Source: a bacterium
GTDB lineage: Bacteria > Planctomycetota > UBA1135 > GCA-002686595
Assembly (NCBI GenBank): GCA_030428395.1
Contig: JAUIDW010000003.1
Location: 32,552-64,551 of the forward strand
Direction: 5' to 3'
Length of the DNA: 32,000 bases
The notes under the pieces were generated by a model. It worked only from the letters and a program-made list of their open reading frames with translations, ran no database searches and was not told where the DNA came from. Of the stretch, positions 2,040-29,087 are shown in pieces. The position numbers and the translations under genes were made by a program. Numbering within the stretch: the first letter of the stretch is position 1; every line of letters begins with the position of its first letter.

Positions 2040-2043
<4 letters not shown>
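1168..2043 (+). CDS. narC: Membrane-anchored dihaem c-type cytochrome, NarC-like
   Basis: GTG 1168 is preceded by GGAG (1155-1158). The N-terminus is signal-like ([26 protein letters not shown]). There are two CxxCH motifs (CMSCH, CVSCH). A C-terminal hydrophobic helix ([22 protein letters not shown]) is followed by a basic tail. The stop overlaps the narG start (ATGA at 2040-2043). The ORF-track start at 1060 is possible but would put ~36 non-signal residues in front. Confidence 0.8.
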
Positions 2044-5693
<3,650 letters not shown>

Positions 5694-5717
5694 GGCCGCC
5701 TCACGGGAACACACGCC

Positions 5718-7205: not shown

Positions 7206-7206
7206 G

Positions 7207-7782: not shown

Positions 7783-8468
7783 ACGACTACGTCCTGTTCG
7801 GTGTTCTGCCCTACGTCGTGATGGTGGTGTTCCTGGTGGTGACGATCCAGCGCTACCGGATGAAGGCCTTCAGCTACTCGAGCCTCTCCTCGCAGTTCCT
7901 CGAGAACCAGCACCACTTCTGGGGCTCGGTCCCGTTCCACTACGGGATCCTGGTCGTGCTGATGGGCCACGTGGTCGCCTTCCTGATGCCGAAGGCGATC
8001 CTGTGGTGGAACGCGGCTCCCCTCCGCCTGGTCCTGCTGGAGGTCACCGGCATCGCCTTCGCCGTCCTGACCCTGGTCGGCCTCGTCAACATCATGCTGC
8101 GCCGGGTGTCGCGCCGCCTGGCGCGGCGGGTCACCACGCCGGCCGACTGGGTGGTGTACGCGCTGCTGCTGGTGCAGGTGCTCTCGGGCATCGGTGTGGC
8201 CGTGTTCCACGGGTGGGGCAGCTCCTGGTTCGCGACCAACCTCTCCCCGTGGCTCTGGTCGCTGGTGACGCTGTCGCCCGACGTCCGGTTCGTCGCACCG
8301 CTCCCGGCGATGGTGAAGGTGCACATCGTCAACTCGTTCCTGCTGATCGGGTTCTTCCCGTTCACCAGGCTCGTTCACATCCTGGTCGTTCCCAACCAGT
8401 ACCTGTGGCGGCGAACCCAGGTCGTCATCTGGAACTGGGACCGATCCCGTGTCCGCAGCGTGGACTGA
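7779..8468 (+). CDS. narI: Respiratory nitrate reductase gamma subunit (dihaem b, membrane)
   Basis: From ATG 7779 the product is 229 aa. The N-terminus (MNDYVLFGVLPYVVMVVFLVVTIQRYR) and the multiple TM helices with conserved His (WGSVPFHYGILVVLMGH, KVHIVNSF, RLVHILVVP) are typical of NarI. The track start at 7608 is an out-of-context extension over narJ. Confidence 0.9.
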   Translation: MNDYVLFGVLPYVVMVVFLVVTIQRYRMKAFSYSSLSSQFLENQHHFWGSVPFHYGILVVLMGHVVAFLMPKAILWWNAAPLRLVLLEVTGIAFAVLTLVGLVNIMLRRVSRRLARRVTTPADWVVYALLLVQVLSGIGVAVFHGWGSSWFATNLSPWLWSLVTLSPDVRFVAPLPAMVKVHIVNSFLLIGFFPFTRLVHILVVPNQYLWRRTQVVIWNWDRSRVRSVD

Positions 8469-8480
8469 TCGGGGGCACGC

Positions 8481-10106: not shown

Positions 10107-10107
10107 C

Positions 10108-10758
10108 ATGCTCTCCGCCCTCAACGCCAAGATCCTGGCCGTCTTGATGCTCGCCCTGGGAGCCGCCGTCCTGGCGGGCACCGCCGAGGTGCACCTGCCC
10201 GGGAACCACGAGGGCTACGCCCCCGTGCAGCCGATCGCCTACTCGCACCGCCTGCACGCCGGCGAGCTGCGCATCGACTGCCAGTACTGCCACCACGGCG
10301 CGGAGACCAGCCGGCACGCCGGGATCCCGTCGGCCTCGATCTGCATGAACTGCCACGCGACCGTCACCGCGGGCTTCGACGCGGTGCTGCAGGAGCGGGA
10401 GCGGGCCGAGCGCGAGGGCCGCGAGCCGGAGCGGATCGTCTCGTCCGAGCTGCGCAAGCTGTACGACGCGCTCGGCCTCGACGAGGACCTGCAGCCCACC
10501 GGCGCGAGCACCCCGATCGAGTGGGTCCGGGTGCACAACGTCGCCGACTTCGTCTACTTCGACCACCGAGTGCACGTCGCGCGTGGACTGGCCTGCGAGA
10601 CGTGCCATGGCCCCGTCCAGAGCATGGAGCGGATCCGGCAGTTCTCGGACCTCTCCATGGGCTGGTGCGTCCAGTGCCACCGCGACAGCTCCGTCGCTCC
10701 GGAGACGGGTGCCGGGCGGGACCGCGCCTCGACCGACTGTGCGGGGTGCCACTACTGA
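10108..10758 (+). CDS. actA: Alternative complex III pentahaem cytochrome c subunit
   Basis: The ATG is 1 nt after the narK stop, with GGAGG at 10092-10096. There is an N-terminal TM/signal anchor and five CxxCH motifs (CQYCH, CMNCH, CETCH, CVQCH, CAGCH). It sits at the head of an actBCDEF array. Confidence 0.85.
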   Translation: MLSALNAKILAVLMLALGAAVLAGTAEVHLPGNHEGYAPVQPIAYSHRLHAGELRIDCQYCHHGAETSRHAGIPSASICMNCHATVTAGFDAVLQERERAEREGREPERIVSSELRKLYDALGLDEDLQPTGASTPIEWVRVHNVADFVYFDHRVHVARGLACETCHGPVQSMERIRQFSDLSMGWCVQCHRDSSVAPETGAGRDRASTDCAGCHY

Positions 10759-13736: not shown

Positions 13737-15144
13737 GGCCCCCACGCTCGCGGTGCCCGCGGAGCCGAGGCCGGCAGCGACGCCCGCTGCGCTGGTGGGC
13801 GGCCAGAAGTCGTGCCGCGACGTGACGCAGGACATCTGCGCGCCGCTCGAGCGCCGCCCGACGGGCCTGTGGTGGGCCGCATTCCTCGGCGCCGCCACGC
13901 TCCTGGCGATCGGCGTCGCGTCCGTCTGGTACCAGATCGCGACGGGCATCGGCACGTGGGGGCTCAACCGCACCGTCGGCTGGGGCTTCGACATCACCAA
14001 CTTCGTCTTCTGGGTCGGGATCGGCCACGCCGGGACGCTGATCTCGGCGGTGCTGCTGCTGTTCCGGCAGAAGTGGCGGACGTCGATCAACCGCTCCGCG
14101 GAGGCGATGACCATCTTCGCCGTCATCTGCGCGGGTCTGTATCCGGTGATCCACATGGGGCGGCCGTGGCTGGCCTACTGGGTGTTCCCGTATCCCAACT
14201 TCCGGGGGCCGCTCTGGGTCAACTGGCGCTCGGCGCTGCTGTGGGACGTGTTCGCGATCGGCACGTACTTCACGATCTCGCTCGTGTTCTGGTACGTGGG
14301 GTTGATCCCGGACCTCGCCACGCTGCGCGACCGTGCGCGGGGGCTGCGGCGCAGGATCTTCGGGGTCCTGAGCTTCGGCTGGGACGGCTCCGCGCGGACG
14401 TGGTCGCGCTACGAGATGGCCTGCGTCCTGCTCGCCAGCCTGGCGACCCCGCTGGTCGTTTCGGTCCACAGCGTCGTCAGCACGGACTTCGCGACGTCGG
14501 TCGTGCCCGGGTGGCACACGACCGTCCTGCCGCCGTACTTCGTCATCGGGGCCGTGTTCTCGGGGTTCGCGATGGTGCTGATGCTGATGCTCATCGCGCG
14601 CAAGGTGATGAGCTTCGAGCACTACATCACGCCCGCACACATCCAGGCCATGTGCAAGATCCTCGTGTTCACGGGCTCGATCGTGGGGCTGGCGTACGCG
14701 ACGGAGCTCTTCACCGCGTGGTACTCCGGCAGCCCGTACGAGCAGTTCGCGTTCGCCAACCGCATCCGCGGGCCGATGGGCTGGTCCTACGCGATCATGG
14801 TCCTCTGCAACGTCGTCGCGCCTCAGCTGCTCTGGAGCCGCCGCGTGCGGGGATCGCTGGGGATGGTGTTCCTGATCACCATCCTCGTGAACGTCGGGAT
14901 GTGGTTCGAGCGCTTCGTGATCATCGCCACGTCGCTCCAGCGCGACTACCTGCCGTCGGCGTGGTCGGGTTACACCCCGACGATGGTGGAGGTCGGGGCG
15001 CTGATCGGCGGCTTCGGGCTGTTCTTCACCCTGTTCCTGCTGTTCTGCCGCTTCCTGCCGATGATCTCGATGTTCGAGATCAAGGCCGTCGTCGCGGAGG
15101 CGCAGCACCACGGCCACGACGCGAAAGGGGAGGAGCCGCGATGA
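13726..15144 (+). CDS. actC: Alternative complex III subunit C (NrfD/PsrC-like polytopic quinol-interacting membrane protein)
   Basis: Many TM helices. NrfD-family-like motifs are present (GLNRTVGWGFDITNFVFWVGIGHAGTLISA, WHTTVLPPYFVIGAVFSGFAM). The start is ambiguous: ATG 13726 overlaps actB by 11 nt, and ATG 13693 is also in frame. Confidence 0.85.
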   Translation: MVLEAPTLAVPAEPRPAATPAALVGGQKSCRDVTQDICAPLERRPTGLWWAAFLGAATLLAIGVASVWYQIATGIGTWGLNRTVGWGFDITNFVFWVGIGHAGTLISAVLLLFRQKWRTSINRSAEAMTIFAVICAGLYPVIHMGRPWLAYWVFPYPNFRGPLWVNWRSALLWDVFAIGTYFTISLVFWYVGLIPDLATLRDRARGLRRRIFGVLSFGWDGSARTWSRYEMACVLLASLATPLVVSVHSVVSTDFATSVVPGWHTTVLPPYFVIGAVFSGFAMVLMLMLIARKVMSFEHYITPAHIQAMCKILVFTGSIVGLAYATELFTAWYSGSPYEQFAFANRIRGPMGWSYAIMVLCNVVAPQLLWSRRVRGSLGMVFLITILVNVGMWFERFVIIATSLQRDYLPSAWSGYTPTMVEVGALIGGFGLFFTLFLLFCRFLPMISMFEIKAVVAEAQHHGHDAKGEEPR

Positions 15145-17504: not shown

Positions 17505-18938
17505 TCATGGGCTCGCGGGGTCGCGGCCGAGCAGGTACTCGAGGACGTCGCGGGCCGTGTAGTCGCCGCGTCGAGCCGACAGGAGCTCCTCGACCACGGT
17601 CGTGTCGGCCCCGGAGGTGAGCAAGGGCGGCTCGGGATGTCCGTCTCGTCGGACCTGCCCCAGGCCGATGTTGGCCATGAGCGCGTTGCACACGCACTTG
17701 CGGCCGCGGAGCTCCTCGACCTGGCCACCCTTCCTCACGAAGGCCTCGGCGGGCTCGCCGGGACAGCGCCAGCCCACTCTCCCGTCGGCGCGGAGGTAGG
17801 CGTGCCGCAGGTAACCCAGGTCGCAGACCCGCTCCCTCCCCCCGAACACCTCGGGCTCGGAGATCGTGCCGGGCAGTCGAAGGACCTTGAACGGGAATCC
17901 CGTCGGGGAGGCGCGCACGTCCGTCTCGACCTGCGCCGCCCCGGCGCGGATTCGCTCGAGCGCGTGGCGCTTGACCTCGGGTGCCAGTCCGGACTCGAGG
18001 CAGAAGGCGAAGGCCGTCCCGACCTGGATCCCGGTGGCGCCCTGGCGCCGGGCCCACCGAAGCCGTTCCGGACTCGCGCACGAGCCCGCGATCCAGAAAG
18101 GCACCCCCAGACGCGCGACGGCCGCGAGATCGGGGACGTCCCGTTCGCCGAAGACCGCCTGGTCCGGACCGTCCGGCTTCGCGCGGCTCCGAGGAGGTGC
18201 GTTGTGTCCCCCGGCGGTGGGCCCCTCGAGGACCAGGCCGTCGACGCGCCCGGAGGCCTTGCGCAGCAGGACCGTGGCCACGGTCGACGAGGAGACGATT
18301 GCGAGGAAGTGCGGGCGCTCGAGGCGTGGCGCCGGGCCGCGCAGGAACGCGCTCGGGTCGAACCGGACGAGGTGGGGCTGGCGCGGGCTCGCGCCGCGCA
18401 CGTCGACGCGCAGTCGAGCGGGTCGCGCTGCCGCGTACTCGTCGAGCACGGCCGGAATGGCACGCGGGATGCCAGCACCGACGAGCACGTAGCCCACACC
18501 CGCGAGCATCGCGCCGAACAGGGACGGCAGGATCGTCAGCTGGATCTTCTCCATGTAGTTGACGCCGACCGCACCGCCGTGGCCCTCCCGTGCGAGGAAC
18601 ACCTCGACGAAGTTCGCCGCCACGATCAGTTCCTCGCGCGCGGGTGAAGGACGCAGGTCCAGCGGCGGCAGCGGGACGAACGGCGCGTCCGGAGCCTTGC
18701 CGCCGGGGACCAGGTAGCGGTCCACGATGCGCCGGGCGACGTCCGCGAGTGGAAAGTGGCCGAGGGCGCGCTGCACGTGGTCGCCGGGATCGCCGACCTG
18801 CAGGCGCCGGGCCAGGATGAGGTCCAGCCCCGTTCCGGCGACGACTCCGAGCTGGCCGGCTCGGGAGACCGCGCGGGCGAGCCGCCAGTCCGACACGCCC
18901 GCGCCCATGCCGCCCTGGATGATCGTGGGCAGCTTCAC
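17505..18938 (-). CDS. Nitronate monooxygenase / 2-nitropropane dioxygenase family FMN protein (long form with a Cys-containing C-terminal extension)
   Basis: It carries the NMO signature (PTIIQGGMGAGVSDWRLARAVSRAGQLGVVAG, EGPTAGGHN, GIQVGTAF). I prefer GTG 18938, which has GGAG 8 nt upstream on the minus strand. My hand count gives third-position GC of about 90% downstream of it, against about 79% in the 72 codons upstream. The track ORF instead extends to a TTG at 19154. Confidence 0.75.
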   Translation of the reverse strand: MKLPTIIQGGMGAGVSDWRLARAVSRAGQLGVVAGTGLDLILARRLQVGDPGDHVQRALGHFPLADVARRIVDRYLVPGGKAPDAPFVPLPPLDLRPSPAREELIVAANFVEVFLAREGHGGAVGVNYMEKIQLTILPSLFGAMLAGVGYVLVGAGIPRAIPAVLDEYAAARPARLRVDVRGASPRQPHLVRFDPSAFLRGPAPRLERPHFLAIVSSSTVATVLLRKASGRVDGLVLEGPTAGGHNAPPRSRAKPDGPDQAVFGERDVPDLAAVARLGVPFWIAGSCASPERLRWARRQGATGIQVGTAFAFCLESGLAPEVKRHALERIRAGAAQVETDVRASPTGFPFKVLRLPGTISEPEVFGGRERVCDLGYLRHAYLRADGRVGWRCPGEPAEAFVRKGGQVEELRGRKCVCNALMANIGLGQVRRDGHPEPPLLTSGADTTVVEELLSARRGDYTARDVLEYLLGRDPASP

Positions 18939-19150
18939 GTCGTGAGCTCCGGCGGGGTTCCAATCGCAGGCCTCCGGGCCGCCGCAGGAGGCGCAGGCGC
19001 ACGGGTCGTGGTCGTGAGCAGGAAAGGGGGCATCGGGGTCGGCGGATCCACGGCGCGGACTCGCGCGAGCCGCCGGTGGCGGGGTGGCCACGGCCGCGAC
19101 GGTGAGCCGTCCCGCGAGCCTGTGCACCAGGCCTGGGAGTCCGCTGAGGG

Positions 19151-19200
19151 GCAATTTAGGTATTTAGGTGTTGATATACCACTTAAGCCTGGGCGATCCT
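19151..19200. promoter_or_regulatory. AT-rich island with tandem ATTTAGGT repeats in the divergent NMO/had intergenic region; a candidate promoter/operator
   Basis: The sequence is GCAATTTAGGTATTTAGGTGTTGATATACCACTTAAGCCTGGG. ATTTAGGT occurs at 19154-19161 and again at 19162-19169. GGTAT (19159-19163) and ATACC (19176-19180) form an inverted pair. A TTGATA -35-like hexamer sits at 19171-19176. This is the only clearly AT-rich stretch I noticed in the window, and it lies immediately upstream of had (ATG 19208). Confidence 0.45.
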
Positions 19201-19207
19201 TGGGGGC

Positions 19208-20281
19208 ATGAGGGTCGAGTCCTGGATGGTCCGTGAGGTCTCCCGCCCGATGGTCCTCGCCGAGCGCGAGGAGGCGCCCGGCACCGGGGAGGTCCTGGTC
19301 GAGGTCGCCGGCTGCGGCGTCTGCCACACGGACCTCGGGTTCTTCTACGAGGCGGTGCCCACGCGCCACCCCCTCCCGCTGACGCTCGGACACGAGATCA
19401 GCGGACGGGTCGTCGCCGCGGGCCCGGGCGAGGAGGCCTGGATCGGGCGCGACGTCGTCGTCCCCGCGGTCATCCCCTGCGGCCGCTGCGAGGCCTGCGA
19501 GGCCGGCCGGGAGTCGATCTGTCCCGAGCAGGTGTTCCCGGGCAACGACGTGCACGGCGGATTCGCGTCCCACGTCCGCGTCCCCGCGCGAGGCCTGTGC
19601 GCCGTACCGGACCTCGGCGACCCGGCCGTGAACCCTGCCGGGCTGGACCTCGCGACGCTGTCGGTCGTCGCCGACGCCGTCTCGACGCCGTACCAGGCCA
19701 TCCTGCAGAGCGAGCTCGCGCGCGGGGACCTGGCCGTCTTCGTGGGGGTCGGAGGCGTCGGCGGGTTCGGCGTCCAGATCGCCGCGTCCCTCGGCGCCCA
19801 CGTCGTCGCGATCGACGTCGACGAGGGCAAGCTGGAGGCACTGGCCGACCGCGGCGCGCACCTGCGCCTGTCCGCCTCCGCGCTGGACTTCCGCGAGCTC
19901 AAGCGAGCCGTGAAGGGCTTCGCCGCCGAGCACGGTAGCCACAGCTGGCGCTGGCGGATCTACGAGACGTCGGGGACCGCCGCCGGGCAGCGCACGGCCT
20001 TCGGGCTGCTCGGCAAGGGAAGCTACCTCGGGGTCGTCGGCTACACGCCGGACAAGGTCAAGCTGCGTTTGAGCAATCTCATGGCGCTCGACGCGACGGC
20101 GCGCGGCAACTGGGGCTGCGTGCCCGCGCACTACCCGGCGATCGTCGAGCTCGTGCTCTCGGGGCAGGTCCTGCTGGCCCCCTTCGTCGAGCAGCGGCCG
20201 CTCTCGTCGATCAACGAGACGTTCGCCTCGGTCCACGCGCGCGACGTGTCCCGCCGCGTGATCCTCACACCGGACTGCTGA
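19208..20281 (+). CDS. had: Zn-dependent medium-chain alcohol dehydrogenase; probably 6-hydroxycyclohex-1-ene-1-carbonyl-CoA dehydrogenase
   Basis: MDR/ADH motifs are present (GEVLVEVAGCGVCHTDL, LGHEISG, CGRCEACEAGRESIC, GVGGVGGFG). The specific call rests on context: it sits 3 nt upstream of an Oah/BamA-like gene within a bcr/dch cluster. Confidence 0.7.
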   Translation: MRVESWMVREVSRPMVLAEREEAPGTGEVLVEVAGCGVCHTDLGFFYEAVPTRHPLPLTLGHEISGRVVAAGPGEEAWIGRDVVVPAVIPCGRCEACEAGRESICPEQVFPGNDVHGGFASHVRVPARGLCAVPDLGDPAVNPAGLDLATLSVVADAVSTPYQAILQSELARGDLAVFVGVGGVGGFGVQIAASLGAHVVAIDVDEGKLEALADRGAHLRLSASALDFRELKRAVKGFAAEHGSHSWRWRIYETSGTAAGQRTAFGLLGKGSYLGVVGYTPDKVKLRLSNLMALDATARGNWGCVPAHYPAIVELVLSGQVLLAPFVEQRPLSSINETFASVHARDVSRRVILTPDC

Positions 20282-20284
20282 ACC

Positions 20285-21412
20285 ATGGATTTCAAGAACC
20301 ACGACCTGACCGAAGCCCGCGAAGTGCCGGGCATCCGCTACGAGGAGAAGCCTCTGTACGTCTCCGGCGAGCGGGTCCCGGGGCTGCACGCCGTCTGGAT
20401 CACGCTGGACAACGAGAAGCAGTTCAACTCCTACACCACCGAGATGGTGAAGGGGGTCATCCTGGGCATGCGGCGCGCGAGCAACGACCGCGCGTGCGTG
20501 GCCGTCGTGTTCACCGGCGCGGGGGACCGGGCGTTCTGCACGGGCGGCAACACCCGGGAGTACGCCGAGTACTACGCGGGCCGTCCGGAGGAGTACGCGC
20601 AGTACATGCGGCTCTTCAACGACATGGTCAGCGCGATCCTGGCCTGCGACAAGCCCGTGGTCTGCCGCGTCAACGGGATGCGCATCGCGGGCGGGCAGGA
20701 GATCGGCATGGCCTGCGACTTCACGGTCGCCCAGGACCTGGCGGTCTTCGGACAGGCGGGACCGCGGCACGGCTCCGCACCCGACGGGGGCAGCACGGAC
20801 TTCCTCCCGCTCTTCGTCGGCATCGAGGCGGCCATGGAGAGCTGCACGGCCTGCGAGCCCTGGAGCGCGCACAAGGCGCACCGCCTGGGGCTCGTGTCGA
20901 GGATCGTCCCGGCGCTGCGGATCGACGGCGAGTTCGTGGCCAACCCGCTGGTCGAGACACGCCGGTGGACGAACGAGCTCGGCGAGATCGTCCACGGCGA
21001 GTTCGTCGTGGGCAACGAACGGCGCGCGGCCAAGGCGCTCCTCGGGAAGGGCGTGGTCGACCTCTCGAGGCTCGACGCGGCCGTCGACGAGCTCGTGGCG
21101 AAGCTCGCGAACACCTTCCCGGGCTGCCTGACGAAGACGATCCAGAGCGTCCGCAAGCACAAGCTGGCGCACTGGGACGCCAACCGCGAGACCAACCGCG
21201 CCTGGCTCGGCCTCAACATGATGACCGAGGCGCGCGCGGGCTTCCGGGCCTTCAACGAGGGCACGAAGGAGTGCCGTGAGGCGGACTTCCTGTTGCTGCG
21301 TCGGCGTCTGGCCGAGGGGACCGTGTGGGGGCCGGACCTCGTCGAGGAGCTGCTGGCCGGCGCTCACGGAGAAGCGCACTGCGCGAGCGTCCAGGGAGCC
21401 GGGGCACCGTGA
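20285..21412 (+). CDS. oah: Long (375 aa) crotonase-superfamily protein; probably the ring-opening 6-oxocyclohex-1-ene-1-carbonyl-CoA hydrolase
   Basis: It has the crotonase core (VVFTGAGDRAFCTGGN, CRVNGMRIAGGQEIGMACDF). Its ~375 aa length, with N- and C-terminal extensions, is typical of Oah/BamA rather than the ~260-aa hydratases. The neighbours are had, dch and bcrCBAD. Confidence 0.75.
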   Translation: MDFKNHDLTEAREVPGIRYEEKPLYVSGERVPGLHAVWITLDNEKQFNSYTTEMVKGVILGMRRASNDRACVAVVFTGAGDRAFCTGGNTREYAEYYAGRPEEYAQYMRLFNDMVSAILACDKPVVCRVNGMRIAGGQEIGMACDFTVAQDLAVFGQAGPRHGSAPDGGSTDFLPLFVGIEAAMESCTACEPWSAHKAHRLGLVSRIVPALRIDGEFVANPLVETRRWTNELGEIVHGEFVVGNERRAAKALLGKGVVDLSRLDAAVDELVAKLANTFPGCLTKTIQSVRKHKLAHWDANRETNRAWLGLNMMTEARAGFRAFNEGTKECREADFLLLRRRLAEGTVWGPDLVEELLAGAHGEAHCASVQGAGAP

Positions 21413-21897
21413 CGATCCACGCGGGGCTCACGATCCGACCGCTGCGGCCCGACGACTGGACCGCCGTCGTGGAGCTCGACGACCTCCTGACCGGGACCGT
21501 CAAGCGGGCCTACTGGAAACGCGTGCTGGAGAGCTACCTGCGCGACGAGGGCTGCATCGGCCTGGCCGCGGAGAACGACGGCATCGAGGGCTACCTCTTC
21601 GGCGAGCTGCGCGCGTTCGAGTTCGGGTCGGAGCCGTGTGGCTGGATCTTCGCGCTCGGCGTGCAGCCGGGCGCCGCGCGCCAGGGCGTGGCCTCGGCCC
21701 TGCTGGCCGAGGCGCGTCGGCGTTTTCGCGCACTGGGCGTGAGTCGCGTGCGGACCATGGTCCGCCGGACCGACGTGCCCATGCTGGCCCTCTTCCGCTC
21801 GCACGGGTTCGTGGGGGGGCCGTTCGTGCAACTCGAGCTGGACGTCGCCGACGACGCTCCGCCGCCGGAGGGAACCGGGATGGAGGACAGGCCGTGA
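21409..21897 (+). CDS. GNAT-family N-acetyltransferase (copy 1), embedded between oah and dch
   Basis: GTG 21409 overlaps the oah stop (GTGA), and its own stop overlaps the dch GTG (21894-21897). 162 aa. It has the GNAT core (IFALGVQPGAARQGVASALLAEARRRFRALGVSRVRTMV...FRSHGF) and is collinear with the GNAT at 28166-28669. Confidence 0.8.
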   Translation: MTIHAGLTIRPLRPDDWTAVVELDDLLTGTVKRAYWKRVLESYLRDEGCIGLAAENDGIEGYLFGELRAFEFGSEPCGWIFALGVQPGAARQGVASALLAEARRRFRALGVSRVRTMVRRTDVPMLALFRSHGFVGGPFVQLELDVADDAPPPEGTGMEDRP

Positions 21898-22676
21898 GCG
21901 AGACGACCGCGACGAAGAAGCTCCGCATCGCGCACCTGAACGAAGGCGCCCTGTGGCGCGTGTCCCTGAGCGCGCCCAGGGGCAACGTGCTCGACGCGGA
22001 GATGACCGACGAGCTGACCGCCGTGTTCCGCGCCGCGGCCGGGGAACCACGGCTGAAGGCCGTGGTCCTCACGGGGGAGGGCGATCACTTCTGCTTCGGA
22101 GCCAGCGTCGAGGAGCACCGCCCGGAGAGGGTGGCCGAGATGCTCGCGAGGTTCCACGGTCTGTTTCGCCAGATGGCACAGACGAGCGTTCCTGTGCTGG
22201 CGGCCGTGCGCGGGAACTGCCTGGGCGGCGGCCTGGAGCTCGCCGCGTTCTGCCAGCGCGTTTTCGCGCACCCCGAGGCACGGTTCGGCCAGCCCGAGAT
22301 CTCCCTGGGCGTGTTTGCGCCGCTCGGCTCGGCGATCCTCGCCGACCGCGTCGGGCGGGGGGCAGCGGACGACCTGCTCCTGAGCGGACGCAAGGTCGCC
22401 TGCGCGGAAGCTCTCGACATGCGGCTGGTCGACGCCGTCGACGAGCACCCCGAGGCCGCGGCCCTCGCCTGGGCGGAGCGGCACCTCCAGCCGCGCTCGG
22501 CCTCTTCCCTGCGCCTCGCAACGCGCGCGGCGCGGATGGAGTTCCTGCAGCGCGTGGACCGCTGCGTCGCCGACCTGGAGCGGATGTACCTGGACGAGCT
22601 GATGGCGACCAGCGACGCGCCCGAGGGGATCCTCGCGTTCCTCGAGAAGCGCGCGCCCCGATGGAGCGACGAGTGA
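21894..22676 (+). CDS. dch: Enoyl-CoA hydratase family protein; probably cyclohexa-1,5-diene-1-carbonyl-CoA hydratase
   Basis: 260 aa crotonase (AVVLTGEGDHFCFGASVEEH, VRGNCLGGGLELAAFC, GQPEISLGVFAP). It lies immediately upstream of bcrCBAD. The start is taken as the GTG overlapping the GNAT stop. Confidence 0.75.
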   Translation: MSETTATKKLRIAHLNEGALWRVSLSAPRGNVLDAEMTDELTAVFRAAAGEPRLKAVVLTGEGDHFCFGASVEEHRPERVAEMLARFHGLFRQMAQTSVPVLAAVRGNCLGGGLELAAFCQRVFAHPEARFGQPEISLGVFAPLGSAILADRVGRGAADDLLLSGRKVACAEALDMRLVDAVDEHPEAAALAWAERHLQPRSASSLRLATRAARMEFLQRVDRCVADLERMYLDELMATSDAPEGILAFLEKRAPRWSDE

Positions 22677-23878
22677 GCGCTCCCACGGCAGTGGCTGCTC
22701 CTGCAGGAGGCCGCCTGGCCGGGTTGCTGGAGCGGTGCGAGGAGCTGACGCGGGATACGTCCCTGCCCAGCGTGCGCGCCTGGAAGGAGCGGACCGGCGG
22801 CGTGGCGATCGGCTTCCTGCCGATCTACGTTCCGCGCGAGCTGCTGCACGCCCAAGGTGTGCTGCCCGTCGGCCTCATGGGCGGAGGCGAGATCGAGATC
22901 ATCCGCGGCGACGCCTACTACCAGTCCTACATCTGCCACCTGCCGCGCAGCACCGTCGAGCTGGGCCTGAACGGCAGCCTCGACTGCCTCGACGGCATGA
23001 TCTTCCCGGCGATCTGCGACGTGATCCGCAACCTGTCGGGCATGTGGCAGATGATGTTCCCCGCGAAGCTCGTGCACTACCTCGACGTGCCCCAGGACTT
23101 CGACCGGTCGATGGGGGGGCGGTTCTACCGGCACGAGCTCGGGGTCCTGTCGCAGAAGCTCGTGGAGGCCGGGGCGCGACCCCTGGACCCGGACGCGCTG
23201 CGGGCCTCGATCCGCACGTACAACGTCCACCACGGGCTCGTGGCAGAGCTCTACGAGCTGCGCCGCCGCGAGCCGTGGCGCGTGCCGACCGCAGAGCTGT
23301 ACGTAATGCTCCGCGCGGGCCTGGTGTTGCCCGTCGAGGAGCACAACGGGATGCTCGGGGAGTATCTCGAGGCCGTCCGCGCCGACGAGAGCCGGCGGCC
23401 GATGGACCAGGCGCGCGTTCTGCTGACCGGCTCGTTCTGCGAGCAGCCCCCGCTGGGGCTGATCAAGACCCTGGAGCGCGCCGGGTGCTACATCGTCGAC
23501 GACGACTTCGTGCAGGTCTCGCGCTGGTTCCGACACGCGCTCCCCGAGGACGGCGACCCGGTCGAGGCGCTCGTCGAGGCCTTCCTGGACGATGCCATCC
23601 CCGGCCCGACGCGCTATGTCGACGAGGGCGAGAAGGGGCGCGACCTGATCGAGCGCGTCGAGCGGGCCGGGGCCGAGGGGGTCCTGTTCTGCGCGCCGAG
23701 CTTCTGTGACCCCGCGCTGCTCGACCAGCCCATGGGAACGGCGGCAGCCACGCGCGCCGGGATCCCGTGGACGGCGTTCAAGTACAGCGAGGACACCGGC
23801 CAGTTCCAGGTCATCCGGGAGCAGGCCGGAACGTTCGCCGATTCCATCAAGCTCTGGAGCGAGGTCACGACGCCATGA
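22673..23878 (+). CDS. bcrC: Benzoyl-CoA reductase (class I, ATP-dependent) subunit C (BcrC/BadD; HgdB-like)
   Basis: It is 2-hydroxyglutaryl-CoA dehydratase/BcrBC family-like (GFLPIYVPRELLHAQGVLPVGLMGG, FPAICDVIRNLSGMW, CAPSFCDPALLDQP). GTG 22673 overlaps the dch stop. ATG 22661, 4 codons upstream, is an equally possible start. The gene order C-B-A-D matches the Thauera bcr and Rhodopseudomonas badDEFG order. Confidence 0.85.
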   Translation: MSAPTAVAAPAGGRLAGLLERCEELTRDTSLPSVRAWKERTGGVAIGFLPIYVPRELLHAQGVLPVGLMGGGEIEIIRGDAYYQSYICHLPRSTVELGLNGSLDCLDGMIFPAICDVIRNLSGMWQMMFPAKLVHYLDVPQDFDRSMGGRFYRHELGVLSQKLVEAGARPLDPDALRASIRTYNVHHGLVAELYELRRREPWRVPTAELYVMLRAGLVLPVEEHNGMLGEYLEAVRADESRRPMDQARVLLTGSFCEQPPLGLIKTLERAGCYIVDDDFVQVSRWFRHALPEDGDPVEALVEAFLDDAIPGPTRYVDEGEKGRDLIERVERAGAEGVLFCAPSFCDPALLDQPMGTAAATRAGIPWTAFKYSEDTGQFQVIREQAGTFADSIKLWSEVTTP

Positions 23879-25173
23879 GTCCCCAGTCGGCCCCGGCAGT
23901 CCCCGTGAGCAAGGACCGCAGCCAGGAGCGCCAGAAGCAGATGATCGTCGACCACTTCGAACGGCTGGCGACGGCCGAGCACCGCGGCGAGAAGTGCGTC
24001 TACACGTTCGTGCCGGGGAACCTGACCGAGCTGCTGCTGAGCTTCGACGTCGCCCCCGTGCTGCCCGAGATCAACGCGCTGCAGTCCGGCATGCGTGGAC
24101 TGAGCCGCGACTACATCGCCGCAGCCGAGAAGGAGGGGCACAGCGAGGACGTGTGCACGTACGTCAAGTGCGACATCGGAATGCTCCGGTCGGGCAACGT
24201 CGGCCCGACGGGGAAGCGCCTGCCGGACCCGGACCTGCTGCTGCTCAGCTACACCGGGTGCTTCACATTCCTGAAGTGGTTCGAGCTGTTGCGCGAGGAG
24301 TACGACTGCCCCGTGACGATGCTGCACGTGCCGTACCAGGCCGACGGCCGCATCACGGACGAGATGCGCCGGTACGTGGTAAACCAGCTGCGGAAGAAGG
24401 TCGTCCCCGCGCTCGAGAGGATCACCGGCAAGGCCTACGACGAGGATCGGCTCCGCGAGCTGCTGGCGCGGTCGGCCCGCGCGGAGGACGACCTCGTCGC
24501 CGTGCTCGAGTCGGCCAGGAACCGGCCGTCGCCGATCGACGCCTACTTCGGCGGCGTCTACTACATCGGCCCGATCTTCACGGCCTTCCGGGGGACGCAG
24601 GAGGCCGTCGACTACTATCGCGAGCTGCGCGAGGAGGTCGACCAGCGCCTGCGTGCGGGCCGCGGACCGATCATCCCCGACGGCGAGCTCGAGGAAGAGC
24701 GCTATCGCCTCGTCGTCGAGGGGCCGCCCAACTGGACCAGCTTCCGGCAGTTCTGGAAGATGTTCACCGACGAGGGCGCGGTCGTCGTCGCCAGCACCTA
24801 CACCAAGGTCGGCGGAGTCTACGACGACGGGTTCCGGCACGACCCCGACCGGCCCCTCGAGAGCCTGGCCGAGTACTGCCTCGGGTGCTACACGAACCTG
24901 AGCTTGCCGGCCCGGGTGAACAAACTCGCCGGCTACGTGCGGGAATACTCCGCGGACGGGTTCTTGATCAACTCGGTCAAGAGCTGCAACTCGTTCAGCG
25001 CCGGTCAGCTGATGATCCTGCGCGAGGTCGAGAACCGCACCGGGCGCCCCGGCGGCTTCATCGAGAGCGACCTGGTGGACCCGCGCTACTTCTCGGGTGC
25101 GAACATCCGCAACCGCCTGGAGTCGTACTTCCAGATGATCGAGCAGAAGCGAGGGCAGGGGGCGGCGCGGTGA
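23875..25173 (+). CDS. bcrB: Benzoyl-CoA reductase subunit B (BcrB/BadE)
   Basis: The ATG overlaps the bcrC stop (ATGA 23875-23878). 432 aa. It is a paralogue of bcrC with conserved Cys contexts (DVCTYVKCDIG, YTGCFTF, NSVKSCNSFSAGQ). Confidence 0.85.
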   Translation: MSPQSAPAVPVSKDRSQERQKQMIVDHFERLATAEHRGEKCVYTFVPGNLTELLLSFDVAPVLPEINALQSGMRGLSRDYIAAAEKEGHSEDVCTYVKCDIGMLRSGNVGPTGKRLPDPDLLLLSYTGCFTFLKWFELLREEYDCPVTMLHVPYQADGRITDEMRRYVVNQLRKKVVPALERITGKAYDEDRLRELLARSARAEDDLVAVLESARNRPSPIDAYFGGVYYIGPIFTAFRGTQEAVDYYRELREEVDQRLRAGRGPIIPDGELEEERYRLVVEGPPNWTSFRQFWKMFTDEGAVVVASTYTKVGGVYDDGFRHDPDRPLESLAEYCLGCYTNLSLPARVNKLAGYVREYSADGFLINSVKSCNSFSAGQLMILREVENRTGRPGGFIESDLVDPRYFSGANIRNRLESYFQMIEQKRGQGAAR

Positions 25174-26522
25174 AGTACGCGGTCGGCATCGACCTGGGCT
25201 CGACGACGACCAAGGCCGTCGTCCTCGATCCCGAGCGCGAGGGCATGCCGGTGCTGGGGCGCGGTATCACGAACAGCCGCAGCAACTACGACGTGGCGTG
25301 TGGCGTGGCGCTGGACGACGCCCTGATCGACGCGCGCTTCGGCATGGTGGCGGCCGCCCTCGAGCGCCGCGGAGTCGAGACCGAGCGCCTGCGGTGCGGC
25401 ATGGACGAGTTCTCGCTGCGTTTCCGGGAAGTGCAGTACCGCCGCCAGCTGAGCGCGCTCGCGGGCGTGCTGCGCGAGATGGTCGCGCACGACCTGCGGG
25501 ACGGGCAGGCGCGCGCGGAGGAGGCGCAGGCGCTCGAGGCCATCCTGGACGCGCTGTCGGCCGAGGCGAGCGAGCTCTTCGTGCCCGGCGCGGAGCGCAA
25601 GAGCGACTTCTTCCGGGACCTCGCGGGCAGCCAGTACATGCGCCGGGCCGAGGAGCTGACGCGGACGGGCGGTTGCGGGTCGAACTCGACCGGCATCCGG
25701 TTCGACCAGCTGGTCGGCTACTACGACAAGGCGATCCTCGTCGTCGAGAACATGGCCTCGGTCAGCGGGGACTTCCGCGACTGTGCGCTCGCGGCGCTCG
25801 GCGCACAGTCCGAGCCCCTCCCGGGGCTCGACGCCGCGGTGGCGCGCGTCGTCGGGATGCCGCTCGAGCAGGTCGCCAGCGTGGGAACGGGGTACGGGCG
25901 CGCCCGGCTGCCCTTCGACGACGCGCACATCCGTTCCGAGATCCTGTGCCACGGGCTCGGCGCGTTCACCATGTTCCCCGGCACCCGCACGGTCCTGGAC
26001 ATCGGTGGCCAGGACACCAAGGCCATCCAGGTGGACGCGAACGGCATCGTCACCTCGTTCCAGATGAACGACCGCTGCGCCGCCGGGTGCGGCCGCTACC
26101 TGGGCTACATCGCGGACGAGATGAACCTGGGGCTGCACGAGCTCGGGCCGCTCGCGAACGACTCGACGCGCCCCGTGCGCATCAACTCGACGTGCACGGT
26201 CTTCGCCGGAGCGGAGCTGCGCGAGCGCCTGTCCCTGGGCGAGAAGCGCGAGGACATCCTGGCCGGGCTGCACCGGGCCATCACGCTGCGCGCCATGTCG
26301 CTCCTCGCGCGCTCGGGCGGCGTCCGCGACGAGTTCACCTTCACCGGCGGGGTCGCCAACAACCCGGCGGCCGTGAGGGCCCTGCGCCAGCTGGTGACCG
26401 AGAACTACGGCGAGCTGACGATGAACATCTCCCCGGCGTCCATCTACACCGGCGCCCTCGGCGCGGCCATCTTCGCGGCCCGCAGCCTGGAGGCCGCCAC
26501 CGCGGAGGTCCCGGTCGCATGA
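25170..26522 (+). CDS. bcrA: Benzoyl-CoA reductase subunit A (BcrA/BadF; ATPase of the BcrAD_BadFG/HgdC activase family, long form)
   Basis: The GTG overlaps the bcrB stop (GTGA 25170-25173). It has an ASKHA phosphate-1 motif (GIDLGSTTTKAVV), DIGGQDTKAI, and cluster-bridging Cys contexts (NDRCAAGCGRYLG, STCTVFAGAE). A ~200-aa insertion relative to bcrD fits the large alpha subunit. Confidence 0.88.
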   Translation: MKYAVGIDLGSTTTKAVVLDPEREGMPVLGRGITNSRSNYDVACGVALDDALIDARFGMVAAALERRGVETERLRCGMDEFSLRFREVQYRRQLSALAGVLREMVAHDLRDGQARAEEAQALEAILDALSAEASELFVPGAERKSDFFRDLAGSQYMRRAEELTRTGGCGSNSTGIRFDQLVGYYDKAILVVENMASVSGDFRDCALAALGAQSEPLPGLDAAVARVVGMPLEQVASVGTGYGRARLPFDDAHIRSEILCHGLGAFTMFPGTRTVLDIGGQDTKAIQVDANGIVTSFQMNDRCAAGCGRYLGYIADEMNLGLHELGPLANDSTRPVRINSTCTVFAGAELRERLSLGEKREDILAGLHRAITLRAMSLLARSGGVRDEFTFTGGVANNPAAVRALRQLVTENYGELTMNISPASIYTGALGAAIFAARSLEAATAEVPVA

Positions 26523-27409
26523 GGGCCGCCGCGATCATGCCCGCAGCGGTCCCGGACCAGCTGACGGCGGGCATCGACGTCGGGTCGGCCACCGTCAAGG
26601 TGGCCCTCATGCGCGTCGGCGACGGCTGCGGCGAGGTCCTGGTGGAGGGCCGCTCCGAGCGCATTCGACGCCGGGAGCCCGAGGTCGTCGCCGCGGGACT
26701 GTTCGACGACGTGCTGGGTGCGGCGGGCGTCGAGCGCAAGCAGCTCGACTACGTCGCCACCACCGGCGAGGGCGAGCTCGTGGCCTTCCGCACGGGGCAC
26801 TTCTACGGGATGACGACGCACGCGCGGGGGGCGCGCTACCTCGAGCCCGGGGCCGACGCCTGCATCGACGTCGGTGCGCTGCACGCGCGCGCCATCCTCA
26901 TGGACGCGCGCGCCAAGGTGCTCGGCTACCGCATGACCAGCCAGTGCGCGTCGGGCTCGGGGCAGTTCCTCGAGAACATCAGCCGGTACCTGGGCGTGAC
27001 CATGGGGGAGATCGGGACGCTGTCCCTGAAGGCCGACGTCCCCGAGCCGTGTAGCTCGATCTGCGCCGTGCTGGCCGAGACGGACGTCATTAACATGGTC
27101 TCGCGCGGCATCTCCACGGCCAACATTCTCAAGGGCATCCACCTCTCGATGGCCGGGCGATACGTCAAGCTGCTGAACTCCGCGGGGGCGAAGCACGTCG
27201 TCCTGGTCACCGGCGGGCTCGCCGCCGACGTCGGCCTGATGGCGGCCCTCCGCGAGCACGCGGCGGAGTCCGGGGCGTCGTTCACAATCCGCGGCCACGA
27301 GCACTCGGCGCTGGCGGGCGCCATCGGCGCGGCGCTCTGGGGGGCGTTCCGGGCCCGCAAGATCGCCCGGCTGGGCGTGTCGCTCGAGGAGGCATCCGCC
27401 GGAGCATGA
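26519..27409 (+). CDS. bcrD: Benzoyl-CoA reductase subunit D (BcrD/BadG; second ATPase subunit)
   Basis: The ATG overlaps the bcrA stop (ATGA 26519-26522). Motifs present: GIDVGSATVKVALM, TSQCASGSGQFLE, SSICAVLAETDVI, TGGLAADVG. 296 aa. Confidence 0.88.
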   Translation: MRAAAIMPAAVPDQLTAGIDVGSATVKVALMRVGDGCGEVLVEGRSERIRRREPEVVAAGLFDDVLGAAGVERKQLDYVATTGEGELVAFRTGHFYGMTTHARGARYLEPGADACIDVGALHARAILMDARAKVLGYRMTSQCASGSGQFLENISRYLGVTMGEIGTLSLKADVPEPCSSICAVLAETDVINMVSRGISTANILKGIHLSMAGRYVKLLNSAGAKHVVLVTGGLAADVGLMAALREHAAESGASFTIRGHEHSALAGAIGAALWGAFRARKIARLGVSLEEASAGA

Positions 27410-28140
27410 CGAACCCTGCGGACACGACCCTCGGCCTGGCTGGCGCGGTCGCCCTCGTGACCGGCGGGAACGGGTGTATCGGGCACGCGATCGTGGAGGC
27501 GCTCGCCGACGCGGGAGCGAAGGTGGTCTCCGCCGACCTGGAGCACGACGCGGACTCGCGGGGCTCCCCCGCGAGGTGCGACGTCGCGAGCTCCGCAGAG
27601 GTCGACGCCCTGGTCGAGGGGATCGTCGCGGAGCAGGGAGGGCTCGACGTCGTGGTGCACTGCGCGGGGATCACGCGCGACGCGGTGCTGTGGAAGCTCT
27701 CCGACGAGGACTGGCAGTCCGTCCAGCGCGTCAACCTGGACTCCGCCTTCTTCATCCTGCGGGCAGCAGCGCGCCACCTGCGCCGCTCCGGTCGAGGCGC
27801 CGTGGTCCTGGTTTCCTCGATCAACGGCGAGCGCGGCAAGCTGGGGCAAGCGAACTACTCCGCGAGCAAGGCGGGCCTGATCGGGCTGGCCAGGTCCGCG
27901 GCCCGCGAACTGGGGCGCGATGGAGCCCGCGTCAACGTCGTCGCGCCCGGCTTCATCGAATCGCGGATGACGGCCGGACTCCCCGAGTACGTCCGCGAGC
28001 AGGCGCTGGCGGAGACGGTGCTCGGTCGGATCGGGAGCCCTGCGGACGTGGCCGCGTCCGTGCTGTTCCTGTGCTCACGCCAGGCGAGCCACGTCACGGG
28101 GCAGGTGCTCCGGGTGGACGGTGGACAGCTGATCGCATGA
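27406..28140 (+). CDS. Short-chain dehydrogenase/reductase, FabG-like (3-oxoacyl/3-hydroxyacyl reductase type)
   Basis: The ATG overlaps the bcrD stop (ATGA 27406-27409). It has a TGGNGCIG Rossmann motif, CAGITRD, SSINGERGKLGQANYSASKAG (Ser-Tyr-Lys catalytic residues) and VAPGFIESRMT. The substrate cannot be deduced from the sequence. Confidence 0.85.
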   Translation: MTNPADTTLGLAGAVALVTGGNGCIGHAIVEALADAGAKVVSADLEHDADSRGSPARCDVASSAEVDALVEGIVAEQGGLDVVVHCAGITRDAVLWKLSDEDWQSVQRVNLDSAFFILRAAARHLRRSGRGAVVLVSSINGERGKLGQANYSASKAGLIGLARSAARELGRDGARVNVVAPGFIESRMTAGLPEYVREQALAETVLGRIGSPADVAASVLFLCSRQASHVTGQVLRVDGGQLIA

Positions 28141-28165
28141 GGCGACGACGACCCGGAACCAGACC

Positions 28166-28669
28166 ATGGAAGACAACCACACGAGCCTCCGCGAGACCGA
28201 TCGCATCGTCGTGCGCCGGCTGCGGCCGTCGGACCTGGAGCCTGTCATCGCGATCGACTCCCGGCTGATCGGGCGACGCCGGGACGAGTACTTCAAGCTG
28301 AAGCTCGAGATGGCCCGCAACGAGACGGGCGTCGAGGTCTCCCTGGCGGCCGAGCTGGACGACCTCTTCGTGGGGTTCCTCATCGCGCGCGTGTACTACG
28401 GCGAGTTCGGCGTCGCCGAGCCCGCCGCCGTCCTCGAGGTCCTCGGCGTCCATCTGGACTTTCGCGGCAAGGGCGTGGGGTACGCGCTGATCGCGCAGCT
28501 GACCACGAACTTGCTCGGGCTGGGGGTCCGCAGGGTCTCCACCGAGGTCGCCTGGGGCGACCACGACCTGATGGCCTTCCTGGATCGCGTGGGCTTCTCT
28601 CCCGCGCCTCGCTTCTGCCTCGACATGGACTGCGAGGCCTTTCGGAGGCGCGAGGAGACCCGGATATGA
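28166..28669 (+). CDS. GNAT-family N-acetyltransferase (copy 2; BadL-like by context)
   Basis: 167 aa. The GNAT core is LEVLGVHLDFRGKGVGYALIAQLTTNLLGLGVRRVSTEV...LDRVGF. It is collinear with copy 1 over its whole length, at roughly one third identical residues by eye. It ends 7 nt before an Rrf2 regulator gene. Confidence 0.8.
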   Translation: MEDNHTSLRETDRIVVRRLRPSDLEPVIAIDSRLIGRRRDEYFKLKLEMARNETGVEVSLAAELDDLFVGFLIARVYYGEFGVAEPAAVLEVLGVHLDFRGKGVGYALIAQLTTNLLGLGVRRVSTEVAWGDHDLMAFLDRVGFSPAPRFCLDMDCEAFRRREETRI

Positions 28670-28676
28670 TCGCCCC

Positions 28677-29087
28677 ATGAACCTCAACAAGAGCACGCGA
28701 TACGCGTTGCACGCCGCGATGGAGATGGCGATGTCCGTGGACCGTCCGATCACCGCGGGGCAAATCGCCGAGCGCTACGGGATCCCCGAGAACGTGCTGG
28801 CGAAGGTCCTTCAGCAGCTGGTGCGCGTGGGCGTTGCGCGTGGAGCGCGAGGCGTCGGCGGCGGGTATCGGCTGGCGCGGTGTCCGGAGGACGTCTCGGT
28901 CCAGGAGATCATCGACTTCTTCGAGCCGATGCCCCCCCCGGACACGTGCATGCTGCGCGAGCTACCCGGGGAGAAGTGTCCGGATGCACGCACCCCCTCG
29001 TGCCGGCTCATGGGGTTGTTCCAGGAGGTCGACGAGACGGCCCGGTCGACGTTCGCCTCGGTCTCGCTGGCCACGCTCGCCTCCTAG
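28677..29087 (+). CDS. Rrf2-family winged-helix transcriptional regulator with three clustered Cys (BadM-like by context)
   Basis: 136 aa. It has the Rrf2 N-terminus (MNLNKSTRYALHAAMEMA...ITAGQIAERYGIPENVLAKVLQQLVRVGV...GGGYRLAR) and a C-terminal Cys trio (TC-x9-C-x7-C). Confidence 0.85.
   Translation: MNLNKSTRYALHAAMEMAMSVDRPITAGQIAERYGIPENVLAKVLQQLVRVGVARGARGVGGGYRLARCPEDVSVQEIIDFFEPMPPPDTCMLRELPGEKCPDARTPSCRLMGLFQEVDETARSTFASVSLATLAS

Follow-up and report, generated by a model that had tools for sequence, protein, structure and literature searches.

We analyzed a stretch of 32 kb from an uncultured member of the Planctomycetota (contig JAUIDW010000003.1; hereafter the window), which has a G+C content of 70% and carries one self-regulated operon for reductive dearomatization of benzoyl-CoA. 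Codon-position G+C profiles and family searches delineated the operon as an unbroken plus-strand row of 11 genes, had-oah-GNAT1-dch-bcrCBAD-SDR-GNAT2-rrf2, in which the genes for two acetyltransferases of the GNAT superfamily (GNAT1 and GNAT2) and for an Rrf2-family regulator accompany the catabolic genes. The two acetyltransferases, and their relationship to the regulator and to the reductase, are the subject of this study. Pathway genes were identified with NCBIfam equivalog models and their cut-offs, and the features of the operon are as follows (SDR, short-chain dehydrogenase; aa, amino acids; nt, nucleotides).

19152-19187: predicted Rrf2 operator, an AT-rich imperfect palindrome with the core AGGTA-N14-TACC (19158-19180), 21-56 nt upstream of the had ATG.
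19208-20281, plus strand: had, 6-hydroxycyclohex-1-ene-1-carbonyl-CoA dehydrogenase, gene 1 of the operon (TIGR03201, 472 bits; cut-off 339).
20285-21412, plus strand: oah, 6-oxocyclohex-1-ene-1-carbonyl-CoA hydrolase, ring cleavage (TIGR03200, 572 bits; cut-off 464).
21409-21897, plus strand: GNAT1, 162 aa, Rrf2-linked GNAT lineage, candidate BadL-like effector synthase (PF00583).
21894-22676, plus strand: dch, cyclohexa-1,5-diene-1-carbonyl-CoA hydratase (TIGR03189, 282 bits, just under the cut-off of 292.5; ECH_1 domain).
22673-23878, plus strand: bcrC, benzoyl-CoA reductase subunit C, Thauera type (TIGR02263, 497 bits; cut-off 421).
23875-25173, plus strand: bcrB, benzoyl-CoA reductase subunit B (TIGR02260, 712 bits; cut-off 487).
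25170-26522, plus strand: bcrA, benzoyl-CoA reductase subunit A, ATPase (TIGR02259, 552 bits, just under the cut-off of 578).
26519-27409, plus strand: bcrD, benzoyl-CoA reductase subunit D, ATPase (TIGR02261, 348 bits; cut-off 313).
27406-28140, plus strand: FabG-like SDR (PF13561 and PF00106; synteny).
28166-28669, plus strand: GNAT2, 167 aa, reductase-linked GNAT lineage (PF00583).
28677-29087, plus strand: rrf2, Rrf2-family regulator with the Rrf2 winged-helix domain, 136 aa (PF02082, 101.8 bits; TIGR00738, 96.8 bits; cut-off 73.3).

The catabolic identities named in a first-pass annotation of this DNA were borne out, as had, oah, bcrC, bcrB and bcrD exceeded their equivalog cut-offs, with dch and bcrA just below theirs. 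The class I benzoyl-CoA reductase (BCR) is of the Thauera (bcr) type; models of the bzd type (Azoarcus) reached only 74-140 bits against cut-offs of ~380-454. Each gene is linked to the next by a 4-nt overlap or a short gap, and scans inside the operon found neither a sigma-70 consensus promoter nor a plus-strand terminator-like site. GNAT1 does overlap both of its neighbors by GTGA, as had been noticed: the oah stop codon (TGA, 21410-21412) lies within GTGA 21409-21412, and the GNAT1 stop codon lies within GTGA 21894-21897, which is the start of dch. The GTG start of GNAT1 at 21409 is also backed by the N-termini of its homologs. From these overlaps it had been concluded that GNAT1 must be made stoichiometrically with the catabolic enzymes, a conclusion that does not follow. 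Overlaps of this kind (ATGA or GTGA) occur at seven junctions (oah/GNAT1, GNAT1/dch, dch/bcrC, bcrC/bcrB, bcrB/bcrA, bcrA/bcrD and bcrD/SDR) and represent a general packing style, so they carry no special message on GNAT1, and translational coupling does not fix stoichiometry. Among relatives, the oah/GNAT1 junction ranges from -16 to +31 nt; at the other end of GNAT1, a 4-nt overlap with the following gene is present in 22 of 32 loci.

When one genome per GTDB species was scanned with the GNAT2 family, 80 related loci were returned, all of them in metagenome-assembled genomes (MAGs), from Planctomycetota (the closest, 68-75%), Acidobacteriota/Vicinamibacteria, Eisenbacteria, Latescibacteria, Krumholzibacteriia, Gemmatimonadota, Brocadiaceae and Polyangiaceae. 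When the window proteins were mapped onto these loci, the same operon was found almost everywhere, and the FabG-like SDR gene was kept between bcrD and GNAT2 in most relatives. Among these, 53 loci spanned both the GNAT1 and the Rrf2 positions, of which 30 had GNAT1 between oah and dch or immediately ahead of bcrC; four look-ups that started from GNAT1 homologs (L001 and L085-L087) returned the complete had-oah-GNAT1-dch-bcrCBAD-SDR-GNAT2-rrf2 row every time. Thus, the embedding of a GNAT gene between oah and dch, for which a survey of other genomes had been proposed, is recurrent. In three loci (L022, L029 and L045), had-oah-GNAT1 was followed at once by bcrC, without dch between. In L012, oah and dch seemed to be separated by a 486-nt insert, which was considered as a diverged GNAT1 and rejected as an artefact of a partial oah alignment.

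The presence of GNAT1 follows that of Rrf2. Both genes were present in 30 of the 53 loci and both were absent in 20, whereas Rrf2 occurred without GNAT1 in 3 loci and GNAT1 without Rrf2 in none (Fisher's test, 9e-12, uncorrected for phylogeny). The two main locus types were interleaved in a neighbor-joining (NJ) tree of concatenated BcrCBAD, and among 11 phylogenetically independent contrasts in GNAT1 presence, Rrf2 changed in the same direction in 9, was unchanged in 2 and changed in the opposite direction in none. A detailed case is provided by L010 and L024, which align collinearly from had to past GNAT2, at 82-84% nucleotide identity, and differ in three places: upstream of had (the operator region), in a stretch of ~0.5 kb that corresponds to GNAT1, and in a 1.2-kb stretch comprising Rrf2 and a 228-aa open reading frame (ORF). 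A 228-aa protein without a family match is encoded after rrf2 and before an AMP-binding CoA ligase in several Acidobacteriota-type loci (L010, 10989-11675; L086, 17620-18306; L087, 17590-18276); L024, the close relative of L010, lacks it along with Rrf2. Downstream of GNAT2, the Rrf2-less loci showed nothing conserved and, in particular, no conserved replacement regulator.

The region upstream of had varies in the same manner. An expectation-maximization search of the 200 nt upstream of had in Rrf2-containing loci returned a 28-bp palindrome, GtAAATAGGAAntnnanTTCCTATTTaC, which in these loci mostly lies 44-85 nt ahead of the had start codon. At a threshold of 18 bits, it was found upstream of had in 26 of 28 Rrf2-containing loci and in 0 of 20 Rrf2-less loci, in which the maximum score was 16.4 and the median -8.8. 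Two of the three loci with Rrf2 but no GNAT1 had a scorable upstream region, and both carry the operator. In the window there is a single site, 19152-19187 (22.9 and 17.3 bits in two registers); the second-best match elsewhere in the 32 kb scored 2.9 bits, and the only occurrence of AGGT-N15-TACC coincides with this element. The early suggestion that the operon contains a GNAT/Rrf2 regulatory module is thus strengthened by a predicted palindromic operator confined to loci that encode Rrf2, and from these data we infer that the Rrf2 protein of the operon acts as a repressor at 19152-19187. That three separate sites in a 10-kb operon repeatedly change together argues for a functional unit; judged by this comparison of loci, GNAT1, Rrf2 and the palindrome are one evolutionary module, gained and lost together. 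The intergenic region that holds the predicted operator is shared with a divergent minus-strand gene (17505 to ~18940) that resembles nitronate monooxygenase (NMO; PF03060). A 151-aa plus-strand ORF at 18756-19211, which appears to overlap had, was rejected as spurious and covers this NMO-like gene. In L053, an Rrf2-less locus, GNAT2 is closely followed by a gene that is similar to it, judged from a common N-terminal motif.

The regulator itself has three cysteines, C91, C101 and C109, spaced as C-x9-C-x7-C. This triad is conserved in 26 of 48 Rrf2 homologs from related operons and wholly absent from the rest, a pattern suggestive of a regulator sublineage with Fe-S or redox sensing. BadM, the Rrf2 repressor of benzoate degradation in Rhodopseudomonas palustris, is reported to be without the Fe-S-coordinating residues of RirA, IscR and NsrR (bioRxiv 10.64898/2026.06.27.734994), a feature that the window protein does not share. 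One could accordingly suppose that Rrf2 senses redox state or oxygen through an Fe-S cluster on the three cysteines and that neither GNAT signals to it, both being housekeeping or detoxifying enzymes or protein acetyltransferases that act on pathway enzymes. A repressor that senses redox state would suit BCR, which is oxygen-sensitive, and the fold matches of GNAT2 described below lean toward protein acetyltransferases. However, half of the Rrf2 homologs are cysteine-free although their loci (L010 and L020, for instance) retain the operator and GNAT1, this view does not account for why GNAT1 depends so strictly on Rrf2, and the fold matches are generic. We consider this explanation improbable. 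With the triad in only 26 of 48 homologs, a redox input is possible in a sublineage but cannot be general.

Both acetyltransferase ORFs scored well above the curated PF00583 cut-off of 20.7 bits (42.7 for GNAT1 and 39.5 for GNAT2), and AlphaFold2 models of both showed the GNAT fold (mean predicted local distance difference test scores of 87.7 and 83.2, respectively), with strands and helices in the order beta-alpha-alpha-beta(3)-alpha-beta-alpha-beta. In the acetyl-CoA-binding motif A (Q/R-x-x-G-x-G/A), GNAT2 has the canonical R-G-K-G-V-G, and GNAT1 has A-R-Q-G-V-A, which retains G-x-A with a variable first position. Fold searches with either model returned hundreds of GNAT structures at probability 1.00, with GNAT1 leaning toward small-molecule enzymes and GNAT2 toward protein N-terminal acetyltransferases (Naa50, Naa60 and Ard1); these matches are generic (template modeling scores of 0.6-0.7, at most 24% identity) and therefore too weak for substrate assignment. 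Ratios of nonsynonymous to synonymous substitution rates (dN/dS) were 0.13-0.21 for GNAT1 in four pairs, which points to evolution of GNAT1 as a protein; the range of 0.09-0.21 across GNAT1, GNAT2 and Rrf2 indicates that all three are maintained as proteins under purifying selection.

The two acetyltransferases had been described as collinear paralogs. Collinearity was confirmed (34% identity over 142 residues, E-value 7e-17), and paralogy stands at the level of the superfamily, but not in the sense of a recent duplication. Each protein has more than 900 homologs (951 for GNAT1), nearly all from metagenomes, of which the best are 74-77% identical (74-76% for GNAT1) besides one near-identical copy (99% for GNAT1). 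An alignment also sets two groups apart by their invariant residues: TG..K..YW, R.FEFGS.xCGW, VAS, RTMV and GGPFVQLE in the GNAT1 group, and GRRR.EYF, GF..AR.YYGEFG, TNLLGLG, TEV.W and P.PR.CL in the GNAT2 group. On this sequence evidence, GNAT1 and GNAT2 are two old, separately conserved families and not the products of a recent duplication. Annotation lumps both lineages together as 'RimI-like', which the present analysis separates.

GNAT2 shows a different distribution. In 75 of the 80 loci it is found at most 1.2 kb downstream of bcrD, and just one locus with enough upstream sequence lacks bcrD; in ~20 loci it is kept behind bcrD where both Rrf2 and the operator are missing. More distant relatives (37-50% identity), drawn from a protein library clustered at 50%, occur in similar surroundings: dch-bcrCBAD-SDR-GNAT for P0286 (50% identity to GNAT2), bcrCBAD-GNAT for P0294, bcrD-SDR-GNAT-TetR for P0300, and, for P0409 from a Campylobacterota MAG, bcr genes, ferredoxins and the GNAT gene followed by thiolase, had and oah. 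None of these four adjoins an Rrf2 gene. In L094, the gene for a TetR-family regulator (3127-3765) begins 9 nt after the GNAT2-like gene of a bcr operon, in the slot that Rrf2 occupies in the window. As judged by these gene neighborhoods, GNAT2 is a distinct lineage that tracks class I BCR genes with or without Rrf2, and its Rrf2-free occurrences are not explained by a job limited to feeding an adjacent Rrf2 protein.

It may be asked whether GNAT2 represents an unrecognized acetyltransferase family that travels with class I BCR genes across phyla (Planctomycetota, Acidobacteriota, Gemmatimonadota, Myxococcota and Campylobacterota) and has a regulator-independent job in ring reduction, with GNAT1 as a separate, dispensable add-on. 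We propose this tentatively, as somewhat short of an even chance. Candidate jobs would be the modification of the reductase or of its electron donor, or the acetylation of an amine by-product or analog that would otherwise poison the enzyme. It should be noted that the loci were retrieved by means of GNAT2, and the constancy of GNAT2 among them is partly a matter of ascertainment.

The best-scoring GNAT2 relatives at 50% clustering (P0241-P0284) were tandem double-GNAT proteins of 300-345 aa. They bear on the idea that GNAT1 and GNAT2 form a heterodimeric acetyltransferase in which one subunit is catalytic and the other regulatory or substrate-binding, as a pair needed only under Rrf2 control. 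The two proteins belong to one superfamily (34% identity) and are co-transcribed, and the tandem proteins indicate that paired diverged copies recur in the GNAT2 family. However, both halves of the fused proteins are GNAT2-like, not GNAT1 plus GNAT2, and the one for which the genomic context was looked up (L091, 145-1152) sits among Memo/AMMECR1, Sua5 and inositol-phosphatase genes that are unrelated to aromatics. The fusions were thus rejected as a Rosetta-stone link between GNAT1 and GNAT2. In addition, GNAT2 stands alone in many operons, and a GNAT1-type gene of Agrobacterium, described below, has no GNAT2 partner nearby. We give the heterodimer little credence.

Previous studies have established a system with which both acetyltransferases can be compared. 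BadL homologs of R. palustris (RPA0664), Magnetospirillum magneticum (amb3392) and Geobacter metallireducens (Gmet_2096) acetylate 2-, 3- and 4-aminobenzoate, the resulting acetamidobenzoates lower the affinity of BadM for the badDEFGAB promoter, and a badL deletion is rescued by a badM deletion (VanDrisse & Escalante-Semerena 2018, PMC6191541), in agreement with the first-pass annotation. The three characterized BadLs are 41-47% identical to one another. The route from benzoate to acetamidobenzoate is still stated as unclear (bioRxiv 10.1101/2023.10.10.561740).

A translated search of a plasmid collection gave one match to GNAT1, on Agrobacterium plasmid NZ_CP123840.1 (37% identity, E-value 9e-18), and no match to GNAT2; no further useful loci came from querying plasmids with BcrB or with the GNAT and Rrf2 proteins of Agrobacterium. 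On this plasmid (pAt15-1187-1-2a1 of Agrobacterium tumefaciens), the GNAT gene (WP_065658821.1) lies 35 nt upstream of an Rrf2 gene (WP_081308794.1), near genes for a three-subunit molybdenum hydroxylase (Hcr-like), five ABC-transporter genes and a benzoate-CoA ligase. In R. palustris, the region is organized as badM-badL-hbaHGFE-hbaA-hbaBCD, and the gene content of the Agrobacterium cluster, of the hydroxybenzoate type, matches it. The Agrobacterium GNAT scored 126.5 bits with a GNAT1 hidden Markov model and 40.3 bits with that of GNAT2 (identity 37% and 20%), and an NJ split joined it to the GNAT1 family with a bootstrap of 96/100. It also shares the motifs TGT.K..[FY]W, EFGS.P.CGWI, VAS, RTMV and GP[FY][VI][QE]LE. 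The accompanying Rrf2 protein is 35% identical to that of the window, and AGGT-N15-TACC occurs once in the 12.4-kb Agrobacterium locus, in the intergenic region before the GNAT gene. Unlike in the window, this GNAT gene directly adjoins the Rrf2 gene, no BCR genes lie nearby and the Rrf2 protein is without the C-terminal cysteine triad; the locus is known from sequence alone.

A second comparison made use of the last 6-8 residues of the three characterized BadLs, which are given by published cloning primers (...MEKNLD, ...FIQFEKDL and ...IELEKPLD). These peptides fit the final strand of the GNAT1 family (FVQLELDI) and scored higher with the GNAT1 than with the GNAT2 family profile in all three cases: 8.7 vs 5.5 for R. 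palustris, 22.7 vs 4.7 for M. magneticum and 13.1 vs 3.6 for G. metallireducens. When metagenomes were scanned with the published badL primer of R. palustris, the three matches were due to chance, and no candidate emerged when the primer-derived peptides of BadL and BadM were concatenated and searched against proteins.

The first-pass annotation had assigned the roles the other way round, with GNAT2 as the BadL ortholog that makes the effector for the adjacent Rrf2 and GNAT1 as an extra copy, either a signal amplifier or an acetylator of a second target. The arrangement of the genes speaks for that assignment. The gap of 7 nt between GNAT2 (end 28669) and rrf2 (start 28677) was confirmed, and in L085-L087 the two genes overlap by 4 nt; the order of badL then badM is the same in R. 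palustris, where badL too lies beside BCR genes. Further support comes from the three loci with Rrf2 and operator that have GNAT2 alone, from the GNAT2-like gene followed by a TetR regulator (P0300), which hints at a general signal-making role, and from the C-termini of the R. palustris and G. metallireducens BadLs, which resemble the LEKxL tails of GNAT2-like proteins. On the other side, the only named Rrf2-paired GNAT found, that of Agrobacterium, is of the GNAT1 type, and the C-terminus of the M. magneticum BadL fits GNAT1 far better. As to genomic coupling with the BadM-like Rrf2 gene, GNAT1 shows it although it is not adjacent (never without Rrf2, 30 vs 0 loci; 9 of 11 contrasts), whereas GNAT2 is adjacent in the window yet is retained, with no operator in the Rrf2-less loci, in ~20 loci and four distant lineages without Rrf2. 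Thus, the original role assignment was probably inverted, and we regard it as unlikely, though not negligible.

Our preferred reading is that GNAT1 is a BadL-like effector synthase for the Rrf2 repressor, to which we attach a probability of about 0.5. In this mechanism, Rrf2 made from the last gene would bind the palindrome at 19152-19187 and repress the operon. GNAT1, as the functional counterpart of BadL, would catalyze the acetyl-CoA-dependent N-acetylation of a small aromatic amine, by analogy an aminobenzoate, and the acetylated product would free the operator of Rrf2. Induction would then raise both the effector-making GNAT1 (positive feedback) and the repressor itself (negative feedback), since GNAT1 and rrf2 would both be transcribed from the controlled promoter and hence be subject to positive and negative autoregulation. 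A feed-forward loop had been suggested earlier, and the position of both genes behind the predicted operator makes a feedback loop plausible. GNAT2 would probably acetylate something else connected with the reductase, and the three Rrf2 cysteines may add a redox or Fe-S input.

Several points weigh against this effector-synthase role. It is GNAT2, not GNAT1, that adjoins rrf2, as would be expected of a functional pair and as is seen for badL, directly upstream of badM in R. palustris. The three loci with Rrf2 but no GNAT1 indicate that the repressor can work without GNAT1, and in Rrf2-less genomes the regulator may be encoded elsewhere. The operator is a prediction only, and its position weight matrix was trained on the same Rrf2-containing set. 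The BadL-like label for GNAT1 relies on one proxy locus (Agrobacterium) together with co-occurrence, and by our own reckoning the LEKxL tails of some distant GNAT2-like proteins fit the R. palustris and G. metallireducens BadL peptides about as well as GNAT1 does. Finally, the NJ trees are crude.

When compared with BadL/BadM, the window operon likewise encodes a GNAT and an Rrf2 protein with class I BCR genes, the predicted target of the Rrf2 protein is the promoter of the reductase operon, and the Rrf2 gene is immediately preceded, on the same strand, by a GNAT gene. In R. palustris, badL and badM are induced on 4-hydroxybenzoate (PMC6974649), and so the GNAT itself is expressed during aromatic growth. 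Other features differ: two GNAT lineages are present and not one, the Rrf2-tracking lineage lies 6.8 kb from rrf2, between oah and dch, and regulator, operator, both GNATs and the Thauera-type dch-had-oah branch are combined in one transcription unit. The window Rrf2 protein also differs from BadM in its three cysteines, and the hosts, uncultured Planctomycetota, Acidobacteriota and others, lie outside the Proteobacteria. The cluster of Thauera aromatica (had-oah-dch-bcrCBAD-fdx) has the same enzymes, the same bcrCBAD order and had-oah-dch ahead of it, but it ends in a ferredoxin gene where the window operon has the SDR, two GNATs and Rrf2, with GNAT1 inserted between oah and dch.

Acetyltransferase genes have also been noted in other aromatic degraders. 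In Thauera aminoaromatica grown on p-cresol, GNAT proteins were co-induced, with loci not stated in the text (bioRxiv 10.64898/2026.01.30.702948). In G. metallireducens, bamK (Gmet_2077), an 'N-acetyltransferase' gene in the bam cluster, is ~22-fold induced on benzoate (PMC1924859). Like GNAT1, bamK is an acetyltransferase gene within a ring-reduction cluster, and the same genome has a second GNAT (BadL, Gmet_2096) near an Rrf2 gene, which gives a two-GNAT layout. The bam reductase, however, is of class II (BamB-I).

With regard to the surroundings, the operon (19208-29087) has no ferredoxin gene, unlike those of Thauera (fdx) or R. palustris (badB), and in most relatives the slot after bcrD is occupied by the FabG-like SDR gene. 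In L086 and L087, genes for a KorAB-like 2-oxoacid:ferredoxin oxidoreductase lie upstream. The first part of the window (1-15144) holds respiratory-type oxidoreductase genes, which encode a NarH-like Fe-S subunit (5694-7205), a NarJ-like chaperone (7138-7782), a 1209-aa molybdopterin/4Fe-4S fusion protein (10107-13736) and an NrfD-like membrane subunit (13663-15144). Downstream, a B12-binding radical SAM gene (PF02310 and PF04055; 29308-30849) starts 220 nt past rrf2, in a position that is not conserved in relatives.

The acetylation-based regulatory principle is already known from BadL/BadM, as is the occurrence of GNAT genes in ring-reduction clusters (bamK and Thauera aminoaromatica). What is new is the distinction of two lineages, the tracking of the repressor by the embedded lineage, the operator prediction, the wide occurrence of the module among uncultured phyla and the reductase-linked GNAT2 family. 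For anaerobic benzoate degradation, an inducing signal that arises by small-molecule acetylation is documented in one organism, with homologs in two others, all of them Proteobacteria. Our analysis yields a predicted operator sequence that can be tested and flags GNAT2 as a reductase-linked acetyltransferase, and natural variants that lack all three parts (operator, GNAT1 and Rrf2) provide built-in controls. Possible uses include reporter design, heterologous expression of benzoyl-CoA reductase and the reading of aromatic-degradation potential in metagenomes. If the proposed role of GNAT1 is true, the same logic would be widespread in uncultured soil and sediment phyla, and its form would be cleaner, with a single operon holding operator, effector enzyme and repressor.

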